Shown here in pieces: positions 851 to 7,594 of a stretch of 9,022 nucleotides of DNA. Location: the NCBI GenBank assembly GCA_031288595.1, contig JAITRB010000009.1, positions 1 to 9,022 of the forward strand, in the 5' to 3' direction. Position numbers and translations under genes: made by a program. The notes below the pieces were generated by a model, which ran no database searches, was not told the DNA's origin, and worked only from the letters and a program-made list of their open reading frames with translations. The number at the start of each line of letters is the position of its first letter. Within the stretch, counting starts at the first letter, position 1. The stretch comes from Puniceicoccales bacterium (GTDB taxonomy: Bacteria; Verrucomicrobiota; Verrucomicrobiia; Opitutales; JAIRLG01).

Positions 851-951
851 GCCGCTGTCTTTGGCTCCCTTCAGGAGCGGCCCGCGGAGCGGGCCCCAGC
901 AGCGCCGGAGGGGAAAGACTTCCCCTCCGGCGCTGCTGCAAAGACAGCGGC
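851..951 (-). repeat. Four-way-junction structured repeat, copy 1 (inverted relative to copy at 5629-5737)
   Basis: Perfect 13-bp terminal inverted repeat GCCGCTGTCTTTG (851-863) / CAAAGACAGCGGC (939-951). It encloses three hairpins: 864-878 (5 bp), 879-895 (7 bp, loop GGA) and 897-938 (perfect 19 bp, loop AGAC). The reverse complement aligns along its full length with 5629-5737. Confidence 0.85.
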
Positions 952-1050: not shown

Positions 1051-3702
1051 ATGAGAGAAAGTTCACGAGATAGAGAGCATCGGCTCAACCCAAGGGCCCG
1101 GGTGATCGGGCTCAGCCGGCGGCCAGCCATTGCTAAACTCATCACCTGCAGCTTTGTCCTCATCCTCTCCAGCGCCCAAGCCGAGTGGCCTAGCCCCGTG
1201 CTCCGATACGTGGAGCGGCAGTCTTCGGTGGAGACTGGATTCTGGAGAAGGGCAGGGCTTGCCTCGCCCAGCCAGGCCTGCTTCTCTCCAGCCCTTCAGC
1301 TCTCCTCAGCGGAAAAAGAGATGGAAGAGGCCCTCTGCGACCTCATCCCGCTGAAAGGCCCATGGCCTGCAGCAGCTGTGCAGAACGAGCTCCCGAGAAT
1401 CCTGACATGGCTGGAGTCGCTCGTCTCTAGCCCAGAACAGCTCGATGCCCAGGAAAGGTTCCTCCGCGATTCGCTGCCACTCCTCCGAATCCTCACCCGC
1501 CTGTTCCATTTCGAGGAACGTTCTATTCTGAATGTCCGGCAAGTCGAAAGGGCGAGAATCCTGGCCTCGACCGAGCGCATTCCCAACGATCTCGGGGTTC
1601 TGGATGCCCTTCGGAATCTACTTCCGCTCTGGCTCGCGCACTACCGCGATCAAAGGACTCGATGGAAGGTCCAGATGCCAGTGCTCTCGGAGGCCTTCCA
1701 GCAAGCACTCTGGGCCTCTCATCCCTCCGCCGATGCCCGGGCCTTCATCCCACTAGAGGAGTGGTACATCCGCCTCCACAGCCTGCAGGAAGCCGTAATC
1801 GATCCGCTCGCCACCGCCCAGGGCCACCGCCGATCCCCTCTCCGCAAAACCCATCGCCGGCTAGCCCTGAAGCAAGAGGCAGGCAAGTACCACCAGGTAT
1901 GCCTGGTTCAGGACGAAGGGGGGATGGACTGGGTGCTCAAGGTCTTCCATTTCCAGGAACACGCGGGTGGCTACGTCAGCAGCGGTGTTCTGCCGCAGCT
2001 GTCCCACCTCATCGGGCGCAACGTTTTCAGTTACCGGCTGGGCGAGTGGCTTTGCCCGGGCATGCCTGTCCCGACATGGCCCTGCCTCATACCGGCCAGC
2101 GGCGATGGCAGAACCCTTGCCTTGGGCATACGGATGGCCAGGGCCCGCGGTCTGCCCTTCAGCCACTACTGGAAGCCGAGGGACACAACCCATCCCCAGT
2201 TGGCCCGAATAGAAGTCCACCGCAGGCGGTGCCTGTTCCTTCTGAACCAGATCGCGGGAGAAGGAGCCGAGGGCAACATTTCCCGTGCTTCCTCATCCAG
2301 CAGAGAGCTGCAGGAGCTTTTCATCTCCGACGACGATGTGGTTCAAGAAGGTCTGCGAAAGCGCTGGCAGGGTCTCGGGGGCGATTTGAGGCGCTCGCTC
2401 TTGAAGGACTGGAAGAGCTACGTTACCGAGATGAAGGCCCTGCGGCAGCGGCTCCGGCCGGGAGCGCTCGTCCGCAACCTCATCCGCCTACAGTGGCTGG
2501 ACGCACTGCTCTTCCAGGGCGACCGCCATTACTGTAATTTCTACATCGAGCCAGAGGCCTCCTACAGGCTCCAGCTGATCGACCAGGATCAGTGCCTCGG
2601 GCCCCTTGATCCCCGGGCCTCCTGCGACGTCTTTCCCCAAAAAGACTTCGAGCGGCAGATGAGCGTGCGGACTGAGAGCTACTTCGGCCATGGCGGCTCG
2701 AGCGTCGCCGAATGCTGGGCCCGCCATGGGGGAAAGTCCATCGCCCCCCTGCCCCCGTTCATCGACGCCTCGACGGCCTTCCATTTCAGATGTTGCCGCT
2801 CGGAGAGCCTGGAAGCCCTGGCCGATGGCTGGCTCCTTCCCCTGGAAATCGCCGCGCTCCGGCGGCGCCTGCGGGCCCTGCAGCGATTCCTCACGCAGTT
2901 GCGGCGGCACGGACGGGTATTGCCCGATGACCCAAATGTCTGGGAAAATCCCAAAATCCTCGCCCAACTGGAACGGCCCGATCCTGCTCTGCCCGACCCC
3001 ATTTTTCCTAACCCCATGCGCAAGCGGGATATCGACCGAGCTGAGGATGCCTGTGAGGCCCGGATGCTCACCTGTTACCAGAAGCTCTGTCGAGAACGGG
3101 AGCGAGAGTGGAGGATATTCCTAAACCTCTCGGTCTGCTTTGACGTCCTGCGGAACCTGAAGGTCGGAGCCGGGGCCGATGCTGAGGGGAGGGATAGGGG
3201 GTTGTGGGGCGATGGCCCGGCTGCGGAGACGCGGGCAGGATGCCCGCGGCTCCGCAGACCCCGGCCTTTTTCTCGAAAAAGGCCGACTTTCTCCGAAAGG
3301 GGCCATCGCCCCAAAAATCAAAACCAATCCCCTAAACCCATGCTTGACGCCGCCCTTCAAAGCACTAGCCCTTCCGTACATCCATGCTCAAGACCAAAAA
3401 ATCCATCGCCAAGCGCTTCAAGTTCACAGGCAGGGGCAAGGTGCTGCGCCGCAGCGCTGGGTACCGCCACTTCCTGCGCAACCGGAGCGTCAAGCAGTGC
3501 CGGGCCGCCCATCGGGACCATCCGGTCTCGGCGGGATTCCGGAAGCAGATTCTGCGGGCGGTGGCGGTCGGACTTTAGGATATTTTCTGATCCACCGCGG
3601 GGAAAAGCGACAGGTCGGATCTCACAGCAGGACGAAAGGAGAAGCACATGCCAAGAGCGACCCATGCAGGAGCAACCCATCGGCGCCGAAGAAGGATGCT
3701 GA
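1051..3702 (+). CDS. Large hypothetical protein with an N-terminal Sec/Tat-like signal peptide and a central PI3K/PI4K-like atypical-kinase signature; the last ~500 nt of the ORF are probably not genuine coding sequence
   Basis: 883-codon ORF with high third-position GC up to about nt 3150. N-terminus LSRRPAIAKLITCSFVLILSSAQA|EWP is an RR-containing n-region, a hydrophobic core and an AxA site. Alternative starts are GTG 1102 or ATG 1321; the latter is preceded by GGAAAAAGAG. Motifs: WVLK (K at 1939-1941), WLDALLFQGDRHYCNFYI (2518-2538 core) and LIDQDQ (2578-2589). After ~3160 the translation becomes low-complexity (RPRPFSRKRP...) and overlaps a structured repeat, rpmI and the rplT start. Confidence 0.6.
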   Translation: MRESSRDREHRLNPRARVIGLSRRPAIAKLITCSFVLILSSAQAEWPSPVLRYVERQSSVETGFWRRAGLASPSQACFSPALQLSSAEKEMEEALCDLIPLKGPWPAAAVQNELPRILTWLESLVSSPEQLDAQERFLRDSLPLLRILTRLFHFEERSILNVRQVERARILASTERIPNDLGVLDALRNLLPLWLAHYRDQRTRWKVQMPVLSEAFQQALWASHPSADARAFIPLEEWYIRLHSLQEAVIDPLATAQGHRRSPLRKTHRRLALKQEAGKYHQVCLVQDEGGMDWVLKVFHFQEHAGGYVSSGVLPQLSHLIGRNVFSYRLGEWLCPGMPVPTWPCLIPASGDGRTLALGIRMARARGLPFSHYWKPRDTTHPQLARIEVHRRRCLFLLNQIAGEGAEGNISRASSSSRELQELFISDDDVVQEGLRKRWQGLGGDLRRSLLKDWKSYVTEMKALRQRLRPGALVRNLIRLQWLDALLFQGDRHYCNFYIEPEASYRLQLIDQDQCLGPLDPRASCDVFPQKDFERQMSVRTESYFGHGGSSVAECWARHGGKSIAPLPPFIDASTAFHFRCCRSESLEALADGWLLPLEIAALRRRLRALQRFLTQLRRHGRVLPDDPNVWENPKILAQLERPDPALPDPIFPNPMRKRDIDRAEDACEARMLTCYQKLCREREREWRIFLNLSVCFDVLRNLKVGAGADAEGRDRGLWGDGPAAETRAGCPRLRRPRPFSRKRPTFSERGHRPKNQNQSPKPMLDAALQSTSPSVHPCSRPKNPSPSASSSQAGARCCAAALGTATSCATGASSSAGPPIGTIRSRRDSGSRFCGRWRSDFRIFSDPPRGKATGRISQQDERRSTCQERPMQEQPIGAEEGC
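3206..3312 (+). repeat. Four-way-junction structured element, sequence-diverged member (E3), 71 nt upstream of rpmI
   Basis: Perfect 12-bp outer stem GGGGCGATGGCC (3206-3217) / GGCCATCGCCCC (3301-3312). It encloses hairpin 3221-3257 (16 bp, one A/G mismatch, loop GGA), hairpin 3263-3284 (GGCCTTTTT/AAAAAGGCC, loop CTCG) and hairpin 3287-3299 (CTTTC/GAAAG). The order long-medium-short matches 5629-5737. The 5' flank GATAGGGGG-TTGTGGGGCGATGGC resembles the copy-2 flank GATAGGGGCAGGGTATTTTGTGGGACATGGC. Confidence 0.6.
3384..3578 (+). CDS. rpmI: 50S ribosomal protein L35
   Basis: 64 aa: MLKTKKSIAKRFKFTGRGKVLRRSAGYRHFLRNRS... This is the typical basic L35 sequence (KRFK.TG.GK), placed immediately upstream of rplT. 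An in-frame stop at 3366-3368 fixes ATG 3384 as the start. No Shine-Dalgarno sequence is visible. Confidence 0.9.
   Translation: MLKTKKSIAKRFKFTGRGKVLRRSAGYRHFLRNRSVKQCRAAHRDHPVSAGFRKQILRAVAVGL
3635..3641 (+). promoter_or_regulatory. Shine-Dalgarno sequence for rplT
   Basis: AAAGGAG lies 6 nt upstream of ATG 3648. Confidence 0.7.
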
Positions 3703-4031
3703 AGGCGACCCGTGGCTATTTCGGAAACAAGTCCCGCCTCTTCCGCTATGCTCGAGAGGCCTGGCGGCGGGCCGGTCAGTTCGCCTACCGCGATCGGCGC
3801 AAGCGGAAGACAGAGATGCGCCAGCTATGGATCGTGCGCCTCAACGCGGCCTGCCGGCCCTTTGGCTTGCCCTATTGCCGCTTCATTGCCGGCCTGAAGG
3901 CCGCCCAGATCCAACTGGATCGCAAGTCCCTGAGCGAACTGGCCATCCACGACCCAGAGGCCTTCTCCCAGGTGATCACCCGGGTACGGGAGGTCCTGCC
4001 GGGAATCACTCCCGCGGCTGAGGCCCGGTGA
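3648..4031 (+). CDS. rplT: 50S ribosomal protein L20
   Basis: 127 aa containing KATRGYFGNKSRLFRYAREAWRRAGQFAYRDRRKRKTEMRQLWIVRLNAA, a canonical L20 signature. Strong RBS and conserved position after rpmI. Confidence 0.95.
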   Translation: MPRATHAGATHRRRRRMLKATRGYFGNKSRLFRYAREAWRRAGQFAYRDRRKRKTEMRQLWIVRLNAACRPFGLPYCRFIAGLKAAQIQLDRKSLSELAIHDPEAFSQVITRVREVLPGITPAAEAR

Positions 4032-4174
4032 GATGGGGACGGAGCCAGGCTCAGTCCCAGAGTTCCGCGAGCCATTAGGTTCAAGAGCGGACGGACCGGC
4101 AAGGGCAGGAAAAATCTCCTTCCGTCCGGAGCATATCTCAGTTCTTCTTTCCCGAATCCGAGCAACTCATTGTC

Positions 4175-5521
4175 ATGTCCGATGAAGATGAGCGCCGGAA
4201 GGCCCTGATCGAGCACCTCTTCGCCCAGGCAGAGCGCAACCGGGTGGTCGGACAAGCAGAGGAAAGGGAGGGTCATCCTCGGACCCAGGCGCTCTCCTCC
4301 TTTTCGGAATCGCCGAGCGCATCGTCTTCCCCGGAAGACTTGGAGGAAGAGCTGAGAAGGCGACTTCAGCAGTTGGGCATAGATGAGGGTCTGCGCCAGT
4401 CGCTGGCGGAAGTCATGGCCTCGCTGACACCCGGCTCGCCGCTCCAGGGGATCATCGCCCAGTATTTGAAAGAATATCCCATGGATGAACTCATTTCCCA
4501 GGCCCAGCAGGAGCTAGCCAGCGTCCATAAGCGTTCGGATTGGGAGAGCTGCAAGGCGCGTTTCCTAGGCCCTCAGGGACCGCTACGCGCACTCGTCAAA
4601 AACATCCAGGCCCAGGCACCGGAGCAGCGGCCGGCCTTCGGCCAGAGGATCAATGCGATCAAGACTGCTCTCGAAGAGCTGTTCAGCCGCAAGCGGCAGG
4701 AACTGGAGCGGGAAGCCAGGCAGCGTCAGCTCCCGCCTCCCATCGATATCACGCTCCGCCCACGGTTGGCAGCTAATGGCACCCTCCATCCCCTGACACG
4801 CCTGCGCCGGCGCATCGACGCGATTTTCCAGCGCTTGGGCTATACCCTTACCGAGGGCAGTGAGATCGAAACCGAATGGTTCTGCTTCGACGCTCTGAAC
4901 ACGCCGCCCGAGCATCCGGCCCGGGATGAGCAGGATACCTTCTACCTTCCGCGGGATCTGGAGCTCGGCAACGTCCCTCGCCGGCGGGAGGGTGAGAGGG
5001 GTGAGCGCTACATCCTGCGTTCCCAAACCTCGACAGTGCAGATCCGCACGATGCTGGCGGAAAATCCGCCCCTCCGCATCGTCTCCCCAGGCCGTGTCTT
5101 CCGGCGAGATACGAACGACGCAACCCACAGCGCGAACTTCCATCAGTATGAGGGGCTCTACGTTGACCGAAAGCTCACGGTGGCTGACCTGAAGAACACG
5201 CTCTTCTTCTTCCTCCAGGAGCTTTTGGGAGCCCCTCTGCAGATGCGCCTGCGGCCGAGCTTTTTCCCCTTCACCGAGCCTAGTTTCGAGCTGGATATCT
5301 GCTCTCCCTCGCTGGGCAAGCTCAGCGGACAGTGGGTGGAGATCATCGGTTGCGGCTTGGTCGATCCGGATGTATTTCGGGCCGTGGACTACGATCCGGA
5401 GCAATGGACAGGCTTTGCCTTCGCCCTAGGCTTAGAGCGCGTCGCGATGTTCTTCTACGGCGTCGACGATATCCGGCACTTTTACCGCAACGACTGGCGA
5501 TTCCTTCAACAGTTCGCCTGA
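4175..5521 (+). CDS. pheS: Phenylalanine--tRNA ligase alpha subunit, with an apparent ~100-aa N-terminal extension (alternative canonical-length start at ATG 4481)
   Basis: Class II aaRS motifs: GRVFRRDTNDATHSANFHQYEGL (motif 2 region) and GFAFALGLERVAMF (motif 3). A PheS-typical N-terminal coiled coil begins at MDELISQAQQEL (4481). Codons 4175-4480 keep the same frame and a GC-rich third position. Confidence 0.9.
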   Translation: MSDEDERRKALIEHLFAQAERNRVVGQAEEREGHPRTQALSSFSESPSASSSPEDLEEELRRRLQQLGIDEGLRQSLAEVMASLTPGSPLQGIIAQYLKEYPMDELISQAQQELASVHKRSDWESCKARFLGPQGPLRALVKNIQAQAPEQRPAFGQRINAIKTALEELFSRKRQELEREARQRQLPPPIDITLRPRLAANGTLHPLTRLRRRIDAIFQRLGYTLTEGSEIETEWFCFDALNTPPEHPARDEQDTFYLPRDLELGNVPRRREGERGERYILRSQTSTVQIRTMLAENPPLRIVSPGRVFRRDTNDATHSANFHQYEGLYVDRKLTVADLKNTLFFFLQELLGAPLQMRLRPSFFPFTEPSFELDICSPSLGKLSGQWVEIIGCGLVDPDVFRAVDYDPEQWTGFAFALGLERVAMFFYGVDDIRHFYRNDWRFLQQFA

Positions 5522-5628
5522 AAACTTGCCCTATTTTTCCGCCGGTCGTGCAAAGCCAAAGGTCCGCATCGGACGGACATTGCCGAAGCCAGTTCTGTCA
5601 GATAGGGGCAGGGTATTTTGTGGGACAT

Positions 5629-5737
5629 GGCGCTGTCTTTGCAACGCAGGAGGGGAAAGGGCCCGAAGGCTCCTTTCCCCTCCTGCGTTGCAGGCCCGCC
5701 CCACGGGCCGCTCCCGAAGGGAGCCAAAGACAGCGCC
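5629..5737 (+). repeat. Four-way-junction structured repeat, copy 2
   Basis: Perfect 13-bp terminal inverted repeat GGCGCTGTCTTTG (5629-5641) / CAAAGACAGCGCC (5725-5737). It encloses a long hairpin 5642-5690 (19 bp plus a GCC/GGC extension), a hairpin 5693-5709 (GGCCCG/CGGGCC) and a hairpin 5710-5724 (GCTCCC/GGGAGC). It is homologous to the reverse complement of 851-951. Confidence 0.85.
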
Positions 5738-5901
5738 AACAAGCCTACAGGCCCCAAGCATTCACCCAGCTGCCAAGACCTAGAGCCGTCGCTCCTGATC
5801 ACTCTCACTTCCACCTATCCGGAGCCGATGTTCTCGGAGGGGGTGGCCGTGCAGCGGAATCGCTGTTGACGCAGGGAGAATATTTTGCTCCCTGACAGGG
5901 C

Positions 5902-6351
5902 ATGTATTGGCATCAGTATGGCTGCTGTGCTTTGGCCCTCCTCTGGTCATCGGGACTCGGAGCGGAACGCTTGTATCCGAAGTGGCGGACCCTAGTAATC
6001 CATGACTACCAGTCGCGCCTACCGATCAGCCCGACCCTCAGCGACGAATTGGTCGGGATACTCCGCCAGCTGAAGCCCCGGGGACGAAGTTCGCAGGACT
6101 ACTGGCTCTTCGATGCTTACGGTCATCCGATGATCGCGCTGGATCTCAGCCGATTTCCACTACCCAGGGACGGACTCGGGAGCTTGCTCGGCCGGCGGGT
6201 GCGGCTTCGCGGCGAGCGGATGGAGTCCCTATCCATGTTGAGGGTCGCCTTCATCCAACGGGAAGAGGATGAAATTCCTTCCGTTCCGAACAAGAGCAGA
6301 CCTTTGGGTGCATGCAAGCCTCCTTCTCCCACGTCGCCCTCCGGACATTGA
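5902..6351 (+). CDS. Hypothetical small protein with an N-terminal signal-peptide-like segment
   Basis: 149-aa ORF with a hydrophobic N-terminus CCALALLWSSGLGA|E and mostly G/C third positions. I recognise no family. The 3' end overlaps the next CDS by 40 nt. Confidence 0.45.
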   Translation: MYWHQYGCCALALLWSSGLGAERLYPKWRTLVIHDYQSRLPISPTLSDELVGILRQLKPRGRSSQDYWLFDAYGHPMIALDLSRFPLPRDGLGSLLGRRVRLRGERMESLSMLRVAFIQREEDEIPSVPNKSRPLGACKPPSPTSPSGH

Positions 6352-7364
6352 GCCATGTCCTGCCGCCGGAGATCAAGACCTCGGCAGCACTGGAGGAGGA
6401 ACTAGCCGAAACTTACCGGCGCTTCCATCTCTCGGCGGGGCGCCTGGAGCTGATGAGCGGTATCCGCGAGCGTCGCCTCTGGCCGCCCGGGATGCTCGCT
6501 TCGCAAGCGAGCGGCTGCGCCGCTCAGGCCCTTTTCAAGGGCCATCCCGGGCTGGCCCGGGACGAAATCGACCTCTTGATCCACGCCGCCGTCTGCCGTG
6601 ACCGCCTGGAGCCCGCCACTGCCTCCTACGTCCATAAGCTCCTCTCGCTTTCTCCTCAGGCCCAAGCCTTCGATCTATCCAATGCCTGTCTGGGGGTGCT
6701 CAATGCCCTGTGGCTGGCGGCCAGCCAGATTGAAAGTGGGCAGATCCGATCAGCCCTCATCGTTTCCGGCGAGAACAGCCGACCGCTGCTGGAATCGACG
6801 CTGCGGGAATCGAGGAGCCTCTCCCTCGACCGGCAGCAGTTCAAGCGCCTTTTTGCCAACCTGAGCCTCGGCTCCGGGGCCGTCGCCCTGCTCCTGTCTC
6901 CCTGCTCCGCCGCACCGGAGGCCCCCCGTCTCGTCGCCGCCTCCGCCCTGGCGGACACCGAGGCCTGCCGGCTCTGCGAGGGTGGGGTAGCCGCAGATGC
7001 CTCCTGGCAGATGCTGACTGAATCCGAGGCCCTGCTGCAGGCTGGCATCGACCTGGCCCGACGCAACTGGCACAATTTTCTCCGGCTGACCCGCTGGGAA
7101 CCCAGCACCATCCAGCACTTTCTCACCCACCAGGTAGGCCAACGCCACCGGACCTTGCTCTATGGAGCCCTCGGGCTGGAAATTTCAAAGGATTTCTCGA
7201 CCTTTCCCTTCCTGGGCAATACCGGTTCCTCCGCGCTGCCCATGACTCTCTCCATCGCGTGGGAACAAGGGCGCTTCCATCCCGGAGATCGCGTAGCGCT
7301 TCTCGGCATTGGCAGCGGATTGCATTCCATAATCCTGGGTCTCGAGTTTCCGCAGCTCCCGTAA
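6312..7364 (+). CDS. 3-oxoacyl-ACP synthase III (KAS III / FabH-like, thiolase-fold condensing enzyme) family protein
   Basis: 350 aa. Catalytic-triad contexts typical of KAS III: FDLSNACLG (Cys), FLTHQVG (His) and GNTGSSALPMTL (Asn), plus SGIRERR near the N-terminus. The HQVG/ACLG variants suggest a FabH paralogue rather than housekeeping FabH. Confidence 0.85.
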   Translation: MQASFSHVALRTLSHVLPPEIKTSAALEEELAETYRRFHLSAGRLELMSGIRERRLWPPGMLASQASGCAAQALFKGHPGLARDEIDLLIHAAVCRDRLEPATASYVHKLLSLSPQAQAFDLSNACLGVLNALWLAASQIESGQIRSALIVSGENSRPLLESTLRESRSLSLDRQQFKRLFANLSLGSGAVALLLSPCSAAPEAPRLVAASALADTEACRLCEGGVAADASWQMLTESEALLQAGIDLARRNWHNFLRLTRWEPSTIQHFLTHQVGQRHRTLLYGALGLEISKDFSTFPFLGNTGSSALPMTLSIAWEQGRFHPGDRVALLGIGSGLHSIILGLEFPQLP

Positions 7365-7412: not shown

Positions 7413-7489
7413 TGGTCGGGATGACTGGATTCGAACCAGCGACATCTACGTCCCGAACGTAGCGCTCTGCCAGGCTGAGCTACATCCCG
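7413..7489 (-). tRNA. tRNA-Pro (anticodon CGG), CCA encoded
   Basis: Reverse complement: CGGGATGTAGCTCAGCCTGGCAGAGCGCTACGTTCGGGACGTAGATGTCGCTGGTTCGAATCCAGTCATCCCGACCA. Acceptor stem CGGGATG/CATCCCG, anticodon stem CTACG/CGTAG with loop TTCGGGA, T-loop TTCGAAT. Confidence 0.92.
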
Positions 7490-7508: not shown

Positions 7509-7594
7509 TGGTGCCCAGGGCGGGACTCGAACCCGCACGTCCTTACGGACAAAGGATTTTAAGTCCTCAGCGTCTACCATTCCGCCACCAGGGC
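7509..7594 (-). tRNA. tRNA-Leu (anticodon UAA), long variable arm, CCA encoded
   Basis: Reverse complement: GCCCTGGTGGCGGAATGGTAGACGCTGAGGACTTAAAATCCTTTGTCCGTAAGGACGTGCGGGTTCGAGTCCCGCCCTGGGCACCA. Anticodon loop CTTAAAA, 15-nt variable arm, T-arm GCGGG-TTCGAGT-CCCGC. The acceptor stem has one U5:U68 mismatch. Confidence 0.9.

Follow-up and report, generated by a model that had tools for sequence, protein, structure and literature searches.

A family of closed four-way-junction repeats in termite-gut Puniceicoccales and its possible mobility as folded single-stranded DNA

Two copies of a repeat of approximately 100 nt were identified on the first 9,022 nucleotides of contig JAITRB010000009.1 (assembly GCA_031288595.1, forward strand) of a Puniceicoccales bacterium, this whole stretch being referred to here as the window. 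Each copy is bounded by a 13-bp closing stem and contains three hairpins (HP1, HP2 and HP3), which together form a closed four-way junction. The copies belong to a previously undescribed and lineage-specific family (family 1) of very abundant intergenic repeats of termite-gut Puniceicoccales (Verrucomicrobiota), and no description of this family, or of a linker-free four-way-junction architecture, was found in the literature searched. The family is best read, at a probability of roughly 0.55, as non-autonomous mobile DNA moving as a folded single strand, in a manner resembling that of repetitive extragenic palindromic (REP) sequences and REP doublets forming hairpins (REPINs). The features of the two copies are as follows.

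850 to 952, + strand: family-1 element, copy 1, in orientation A (closing stem, HP1, HP2, HP3, closing stem)
851 to 863, + strand: 5' arm of the copy 1 closing stem, GCCGCTGTCTTTG, a perfect 13-bp complement of 939 to 951
864 to 878, + strand: copy 1 HP1 (GCTCC cttca GGAGC), 5 bp with a 5-nt loop
879 to 895, + strand: copy 1 HP2 (GGCCCGC gga GCGGGCC), 7 bp with a 3-nt loop
897 to 938, + strand: copy 1 HP3, the hypervariable long arm, a perfect 19 bp with the 4-nt loop AGAC
939 to 951, + strand: 3' arm of the copy 1 closing stem, CAAAGACAGCGGC, complement of 851 to 863
5628 to 5738, - strand: family-1 element, copy 2, in orientation A on the minus strand
5629 to 5641 and 5725 to 5737 (+ strand coordinates): copy 2 closing stem, GGCGCTGTCTTTG / CAAAGACAGCGCC
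approximately 5642 to 5690 (+ strand coordinates): copy 2 HP3, lying within perfect 21-nt arms (5640 to 5660 and 5672 to 5692)
5693 to 5709 (+ strand coordinates): copy 2 HP2
5710 to 5724 (+ strand coordinates): copy 2 HP1

A first-pass annotation of the window had placed a repeat with perfect 13-bp terminal inverted repeats (TIRs) and three internal hairpins at 851 to 951, with a homologue in the opposite orientation at 5629 to 5737. Both its coordinates and its anatomy were reproduced by repeat search and folding, with the repeat search returning the long-hairpin arms (perfect over 19 nt and 21 nt) together with a 49-nt inverted match between copies 1 and 2, which are the same unit reversed. 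Its description of the first hairpin as 5 bp is correct for copy 1, in which the loop is 5 nt, and needs a minor correction for the family, in which HP1 normally has 6 bp and a 3-nt loop. Its list of two copies agrees with the covariance model described below, which found exactly two family-1 copies in the window, while two further elements of the same architecture (3205 to 3313 and 6481 to 6557) were missing from that list. Both copies were confirmed as intergenic by the flanking gene calls (these being crude picks of open reading frames, ORFs), with copy 1 situated between a 5'-3' exonuclease gene upstream and an 883-aa ORF downstream, and copy 2 between pheS upstream and a 149-aa ORF downstream.

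Folding of either strand of both copies predicted one and the same closed four-way junction, in which nearly every base is paired. With RNA parameters the minimum free energy (MFE) of the two copies on both strands ranged from -90 to -97 kcal/mol, and with DNA parameters from -58 to -60 kcal/mol, with z-scores of -11.4 to -13.1 and none of 200 shuffled sequences being equally stable. When the whole window was folded in sliding segments of 110 nt, copies 1 and 2 were the two most stable segments, and the four most stable segments were all closed four-way junctions.

To gauge the extent of the family, the exact pattern GCTGTCTTTG-N65-95-CAAAGACAGC was scanned in one genome per species, giving 53 loci, of which approximately 40 lie in three metagenome-assembled genomes (MAGs) labelled 'Puniceicoccales bacterium', namely Pcl387_bin38, Pcl387_bin136 and Ct408_bin121 (Pcl387 being a lower-termite gut sample). 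Sixteen matches outside the Puniceicoccales lacked the internal hairpins and were treated as chance, while all the exact-pattern copies gave the same junction fold. Approximately 8 kb was read around each exact match, covering a small part of each genome. A covariance model (R1) built from 48 copies was then searched, at a threshold of 48 bits or more, against 247 kb comprising the window and 37 loci, and returned 92 distinct copies in the three MAGs and the window, including copy 1 (104.5 bits, E 3e-23) and copy 2 (88.3 bits, E 3e-19). Subtraction of the 48 exact-pattern copies that had been used for locus selection leaves 44 copies in 247 kb, or approximately one per 5-6 kb. The repeat is thus far from confined to the pair originally noticed. 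A four-way junction is the MFE structure for 91 of the 92 copies, with junction linkers of 0, 0-1, 0-2 and 0 nt. The elements are 85-125 nt long with a GC content of approximately 65%, a median closing stem of 13 bp, HP1 and HP2 of approximately 15 nt each (6-7 bp with 3-nt loops) and HP3 of 26-53 nt (15-22 bp). The window itself is syntenic with contig JAITKE010000064.1 of bin38 at 82-87% identity, and a Logan contig from run SRR14710895 matches window positions 2975 to 7162, including copy 2, with one mismatch in 4188 nt.

Beyond these genomes, a blastn search in 'distant' mode with copy 1 gave no match among plasmid and phage records, and a general family pattern gave no matches in viral contigs. 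The same pattern gave 25 loci in JGI metagenomes, none of which was matched by the covariance model (E<=0.001), and these were regarded as chance.

The pairing, and not the sequence, was found to be what the copies have in common, with covariation so extensive that the conserved pairing anticipated by the first-pass annotation is clearly present. In the alignment of 92 copies fitted to the model, 97.4% of pair cells hold standard pairs and double-sided changes occur in 37 of 40 pairs, with a covariation score of 0.705 against 0.171 for shuffles (0/500 reaching the observed value) and 0.10-0.18 for slid partners. All five modelled pairs of HP1 covary family-wide, as do all 16 of HP3, the long arm being hypervariable between subfamilies and yet paired; within a subfamily, blocks of HP3 differ and are perfectly compensated on the opposite arm. 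The HP2 core GCCCGC/GCGGGC is retained in approximately 87 of the 92 copies, with occasional double changes in five of its six pairs, while loop sequences are free across the family. The family ends can be written GCYGNCTTTG...CAAAGNCRGC, and the only near-invariant parts are the HP2 core and the junction-side C-TTT-[G/C] and [G/C]-AAA-G of the closing stem. The CTTTG of the copy 1 5' arm adjoins the junction in this way, its CTTT being invariant family-wide. This CTTT[G/C] step matches the RuvC consensus (A/T)TT-(G/C) on one junction strand only, a resemblance whose significance is speculation.

Towards its outer end the closing stem is less constrained, the outermost 3-4 bp both varying and covarying while the inner bases are invariant. 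Copies outside the exact-pattern selection show such covariation as GCTGTC/GACAGC, GCTGGC/GCCAGC, GCCGCC/GGCGGC and ATCGCC/GGCGAT, and the outer ends are CTGC/GCAG in six copies. Pairing stops at 13 bp, beyond which lie approximately 5 nt of T-rich left flank and an A-rich right flank. The flanks of all copies were inspected for target-site duplications (TSDs), a check proposed with the original annotation, and no direct repeats were found, there being no clean empty site for comparison. Two origins for the variable parts were examined and discarded. Capture of HP3 from the local target was ruled out by subfamilies at unlinked loci having common HP3 cores, and a palindromic target as the source of the variable outer stem was mostly ruled out by its outer 3-4 bp being subfamily-specific.

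Of the natures offered by the first-pass annotation for this repeat, that of a non-autonomous mobile element is the one favoured by the distribution of copies. Copies at the unlinked loci L014 1476-1568 and L051 6237-6329, on different contigs, are 99% identical, and the flanks of neither match the other locus. Another copy (L043 2611-2735) is nested in the apical HP3 loop of an outer element with ends at 2583 and 2795. A further copy (L033 1205-1304) lies in frame within the mutL gene of bin38 (ORF 577-2622), where it occupies aa 210-243 and adds approximately 34 residues between the ATPase domain (HATPase, aa 26-120) and the transducer domain (DNA_mis_repair, aa 250-366). A 21-nt tandem duplication of the element end, giving the peptide PALAAEG twice, was also observed in this mutL copy. 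Copy number differs between related species, with two bin38 intergenic regions carrying two copies and one copy, respectively, and the orthologous regions of bin136 and Ct408 carrying none. Clusters resembling bacterial interspersed mosaic elements (BIMEs) were also seen, 25 of the 92 copies having a neighbour within 200 nt.

Many copies are old. Copy 1 has an orthologue in bin38 at L023 895-997 (88% identical), and copy 2 at L012 3161-3266 (77% identical, with five doubly compensated pairs). Over four orthologous pairs of elements, comprising 160 bp, 139 bp were unchanged, 10 doubly compensated, six G:T and five broken, so that 16 of 21 changed pairs still pair, whereas 23 of 69 unpaired columns differ. 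Paired positions thus change approximately three times more slowly than unpaired ones. Reconstruction of filled against empty sites was attempted four times, for the window against bin38 (upstream of pheS, downstream of the exonuclease gene and downstream of copy 2) and for bin38 against bin136/Ct408, and in none was it clean, all the intergenic alignments being too diverged.

From these observations we infer a single-strand intermediate, a class of enzyme and a role for CTTTG. A structure-dependent enzyme acting in trans would recognise the folded single strand, the best guess for it being an HUH Y1 transposase of the RAYT (REP-associated tyrosine transposase), TIRYT (TIR-flanked Y1 transposase) or IS200 type, and may recognise or cleave the conserved tetranucleotide beside the hairpin foot. 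Copying or insertion of the element would leave no TSD, would take place mostly at intergenic spots that pass from T-rich to A-rich, and would occasionally hit the hairpin loop of another element or, in frame, a gene. Both the lack of TSDs and the end of pairing at 13 bp are as expected of HUH-type elements. Complementarity between arms would be kept at the DNA level by selection on a foldable intermediate together with template-switch correction within the palindrome.

Comparison with described REPINs points in the same direction. Between the conserved inverted ends of a REPIN lies a spacer whose only constraints are its length and its ability to form a hairpin, compensatory changes in it being common, and REPINs have been proposed to take on a 'clover' form that is recognised in an IS200-like way (PMC3116915). 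TIRYTs have been described to seed families of TIR repeats, and Opitutus terrae, a member of the same class as the Puniceicoccales, was found by Di Nocera et al. to be very rich in REPs, some of them within DNA-repair genes (PMC3733652). Family 1 resembles the REPIN and TIRYT families in unit size (approximately 100 nt), in its hundreds of copies and in its intergenic and clustered distribution, and resembles REPINs in its conserved inverted ends around a middle for which hairpin formation is the only constraint, including compensatory changes and a clover-like form of the kind proposed for single-stranded REPIN DNA. It has conserved closing arms around a hypervariable, paired HP3, as in a REPIN spacer, although its ends are not REP hairpins. 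Its abundance is also REPIN-like (92 copies in 247 kb, 25 with a close neighbour and one clearly intragenic), as are its long vertical persistence and its occupation of a DNA-repair gene in frame (mutL here, as with REPs of Opitutus terrae). It differs in several respects: its ends are not themselves REP palindromes, HP1 and HP2 lie to one side and make the unit asymmetric, the whole closes as a linker-free four-way junction, and no RAYT or TIRYT gene was found in the family-bearing sequences searched. A loose resemblance between the TIRYT TIR motif GGGGWSAS and the GGGGC ends of some elements was not counted as evidence.

Several of the findings weigh against REP-like mobility. The element is not built as a pair of identical REPs. 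It also lacks the GTAG/CGTC tags by which REP superfamilies are defined (GTAG occurs in 3 of 91 copies, CTAC in 7, CGTC in 14 and GACG in 5, none at a fixed position), and it is TTTG/CTTT that precedes the hairpin feet. The part of each genome covered gave no transposase of any type. A tblastn search with IS200 TnpA and Escherichia coli RayT, using approximate query sequences, gave no match in the DNA analysed, including the 38 family-bearing sequences (247 kb), and only housekeeping genes were identified among the 20 element-adjacent ORFs scanned with Pfam. The set of copies was assembled starting from exact matches to GCTGTCTTTG...CAAAGACAGC, and its alignment (A2) was fitted to the model. 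With no clean filled and empty site, the absence of a TSD and the mechanism of insertion are not proven, and the retention of structure at orthologous loci also fits a function at the level of the host.

Two further families of closed junctions, and one possible relic, were identified in the window.

3205 to 3313, no strand assigned: family-2 closed four-way junction with closing stem TGGGGCGATGGCC/GGCCATCGCCCCA, 70 nt upstream of rpmI
6481 to 6557, no strand assigned: family-3-like closed junction with three short hairpins, within an oleA/fabH-like ORF (6312 to 7364)
775 to 800, no strand assigned: solo hairpin, inverted, resembling HP3 of copy 1

The family-2 element has three hairpins of different length (long, medium and short, the last being CTTTC..GAAAG) and z-scores of -12 on the + strand and -10.8 on the - strand. 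A scan for this family gave ten elements, these being the one at 3205-3313 and nine in Puniceicoccales loci (for example L012 68-187, L012 6024-6147 and L041 932-1050). The family-3-like element is in frame with no net change of length and is 91% identical to an intergenic bin38 copy (L012 3067-3145); despite the element, the encoded protein can be aligned with Xanthomonas campestris OleA (3ROW) position by position and shows no net insertion. Ends of the form T-run-GGGGC...GCCCC-A-run are found in intergenic family 3, in family 2 and in approximately a quarter of family 1 (23/92), and short hairpin modules recur between families, such that, as judged from these sequences, families 1-3 look like a mosaic superfamily. 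At L005 3509-3594, a closed junction of 86 nt with three hairpins and ends of another kind (TCCGGCGATCC/GGATCGCCGGA) suggests that there are further families. The solo hairpin is 83% complementary, at 778-800, to 904-926 in HP3 of copy 1; folded alone it is weak (z -1.2), and it may be the relic of a decayed element.

Other explanations for family 1 were considered. That of a structured RNA, whether a multicopy non-coding RNA (ncRNA), a stabiliser in 3' untranslated regions (3'-UTRs) or between cistrons acting as an exonuclease barrier, or a retron-like msr/msd RNA, was included among the suggestions of the first-pass annotation as an ncRNA or 3'-UTR module. Very stable folds and overwhelming covariation are what such an RNA would show, and the order of the hairpins recalls that of retrons. 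Approximately 99% of pairs are Watson-Crick, however, and the G:T (G:U) pairs that make up approximately 1.2% are divided equally between the strands (47 against 48 for strands A and B). Orientation is unbiased with respect to flanking transcription, 23 copies in co-directional intergenic regions lying along transcription and 19 opposed to it, although a generic role for RNA hairpins would be indifferent to orientation. Copies fall in co-directional, convergent and divergent regions (42/17/16) in proportion to the abundance of these regions (86/27/25). A scan of the window found no promoter-like sites at all and no terminator-like site at the elements. Equal G:T counts, unbiased orientation and the lack of promoters and terminators at the elements argue together against a strand-specific RNA, and favour constraint on both DNA strands or the copying of one arm from the other. 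One copy is moreover translated in frame within mutL. A terminator role was also rejected, the T-run preceding the stem and an A-run following it, with no T-run 3' of the stem. In one copy HP3 is reversed compared with five siblings, HP1 and HP2 being oriented as in these, a pattern typical of inversion of a DNA palindrome. Agreeing with the earlier statements that the repeat was not recognised as an Rfam-type RNA and that the window lacks a reverse transcriptase, searches of Rfam 15 (the window at E<=1 and three loci at E<=0.1) gave nothing real, the best signal at the elements being sub-threshold miRNA-hairpin noise (27 bits against a gathering score of 70), and neither the ORFs of the window nor the 20 element-adjacent ORFs gave a reverse transcriptase domain with Pfam. 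The only tRNAs detected in the window (ARAGORN and the Rfam tRNA model), tRNA-Pro (7413-7489) and tRNA-Leu (7509-7594), lie away from the elements. An RNA is accordingly considered the least probable of the biological explanations.

A somewhat better, though still low, likelihood is given to DNA structural sites maintained by the host, in which a host protein, for instance a nucleoid protein, topoisomerase or junction-specific enzyme, would bind or cut cruciforms or four-way junctions extruded in supercoiled DNA, and host selection, not continuing transposition, would preserve them, a mobile origin being compatible with this. The protein-binding cruciform of the first-pass annotation is in part sustained by such evidence as the equal folding of both strands with almost solely Watson-Crick pairs, the persistence of copies at intergenic sites that are orthologous between species with gene identities of approximately 75-87%, the slower change of paired positions, CTTT[G/C] being invariant precisely at the junction, and one topology being common to three different sequence families. 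It is ranked behind a mobile element, in that copy number and occupancy vary between related species, nested, clustered and intragenic copies resemble selfish spread, and template switching within the palindrome could maintain arm pairing without selection. Equally improbable is a classical MITE (a transposable element of the miniature inverted-repeat type), a deletion derivative of an insertion sequence (IS) whose DDE transposase would bind the 13-bp TIRs. Size, TIRs and numerous intergenic copies would suit this, the T-rich left and A-rich right flanks suggest an AT-rich target, and TTTTGGGGC...GCCCCAAAA ends are common to some family-1 copies and families 2 and 3. No direct repeats flank the copies, however, and the variable outer and invariant inner bases of the TIR are the reverse of typical transposase ends. 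Solo element ends are few in the loci, and no within-genome repeat of 300 nt or more, and so no IS, was seen there. The elements are also GC-rich and not AT-rich, and strict conservation of the whole internal fold is not required for DDE transposition. Chance inverted repeats or an assembly artefact were entertained since MAGs and short metagenome contigs are the source of the sequences, but are counted as already refuted by the shuffling results, by 92 copies over four independent assemblies and by the independent SRR14710895 contig covering copy 2.

Another view, which is held only tentatively and at odds comparable to those of the two preceding DNA-level explanations, is that of a mobilisation or maintenance system that recognises topology and not sequence, the target being a four-way junction of single-stranded or extruded DNA. 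At least three sequence-unrelated families would in that case have converged on, or been shaped into, one closed three-hairpin junction. The invariant (A/T)TT-[G/C] at the family-1 crossover could be where a junction-specific nuclease or an HUH enzyme makes its nick, and the length-neutral, in-frame family-3 copy in the oleA-like gene would hint at a templated 'overwriting' in place of simple insertion.

With regard to other known systems, BIMEs are likewise mosaics of short GC-rich hairpin modules in intergenic clusters, a module GCTCGC nnn GCGAGC being common here to a family-1 subfamily and family 3, but they consist of alternating REPs in open arrays, in contrast to the single unit with its 13-bp closing stem seen here. 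Bacterial MITEs (Correia, ERIC, RUP, Nezha, Chunjie and QMITE) are small and non-coding, with TIRs and long folds (PMC10969869). Family 1 resembles them in its small non-coding size (85-125 nt) and TIRs (the 13-bp stem), and differs in its lack of TSDs, its GC-richness, the conservation of its inner TIR bases, the absence of a visible parent IS and the pairing constraint on its whole interior. The in-frame occupation of genes (mutL of bin38 and the oleA-like gene of the window) is a behaviour shared with Rickettsia palindromic elements and does not imply membership, as the comparison is of behaviour and not of sequence, the lineage is unrelated and most copies here are intergenic.

Integron attC sites function in single-strand hairpin form. 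Like family 1, they conserve structure while varying in sequence, and have inverse ends and a variable terminal structure, but the RYYYAAC/GTTRRRY core sites and cassette arrays are absent here and the copies are dispersed among housekeeping genes. In retrons, the msr-msd order comprises a closing a1/a2 inverted repeat, short hairpins and a long hypervariable hairpin, which is the resemblance mentioned above. Against it stand the hundreds of dispersed copies in both orientations, the lack of G:U strand asymmetry and the absence of a reverse transcriptase from the window ORFs and the scanned element-adjacent genes. The initial view that the repeat is not recognisable as a REP/BIME, ERIC, Correia, BOX or attC sequence is upheld in part, the GTAG/CGTC tags of REPs and the core sites of attC being absent.

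A number of other observations were made. The 883-aa ORF downstream of copy 1 (1051-3702) has no Pfam or NCBIfam match, and its last 500 nt cross the family-2 element, rpmI (3384-3578, encoding L35) and the start of rplT (3648-4031); because of this overlap the 3' end of the frame is unlikely to be genuinely coding. In bin38, the pheS start CCATGTCCGATGAAC occurs twice, approximately 100 nt apart (L012 4770-4900), and once in the window, and the bin38 intergenic region upstream of pheS carries an additional family-1 copy (L012 4951-5054). PheS of the window (4175-5521) is 448 aa long with approximately 120 residues ahead of its Phe_tRNA-synt_N domain, which may be an N-terminal extension or the result of a miscalled start codon. 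An AT-rich array of CTACTTTAA-type repeats at L052 6252-6380 is unlike the GC-rich junction elements.

Few components of bacterial genomes are understood as poorly as small structured repeats such as REPs, REPINs and BIMEs, and knowledge of them comes almost wholly from Proteobacteria. What is new here is a dense family (approximately one element per 5 kb) in uncultured termite-gut Verrucomicrobia, with an architecture consisting of a linker-free four-way junction, an invariant junction step and an arm of free sequence. These elements likely fragment the assemblies of the MAGs that carry them, and they create spurious long ORFs, such as 216-1073 and the tail of 1051-3702 in the window. The covariance model offers a route to the partner enzyme in complete genomes. 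The strand-symmetric compensation seen among the copies is a natural data set that could separate selection for a folded DNA intermediate from the self-correction of palindromes.

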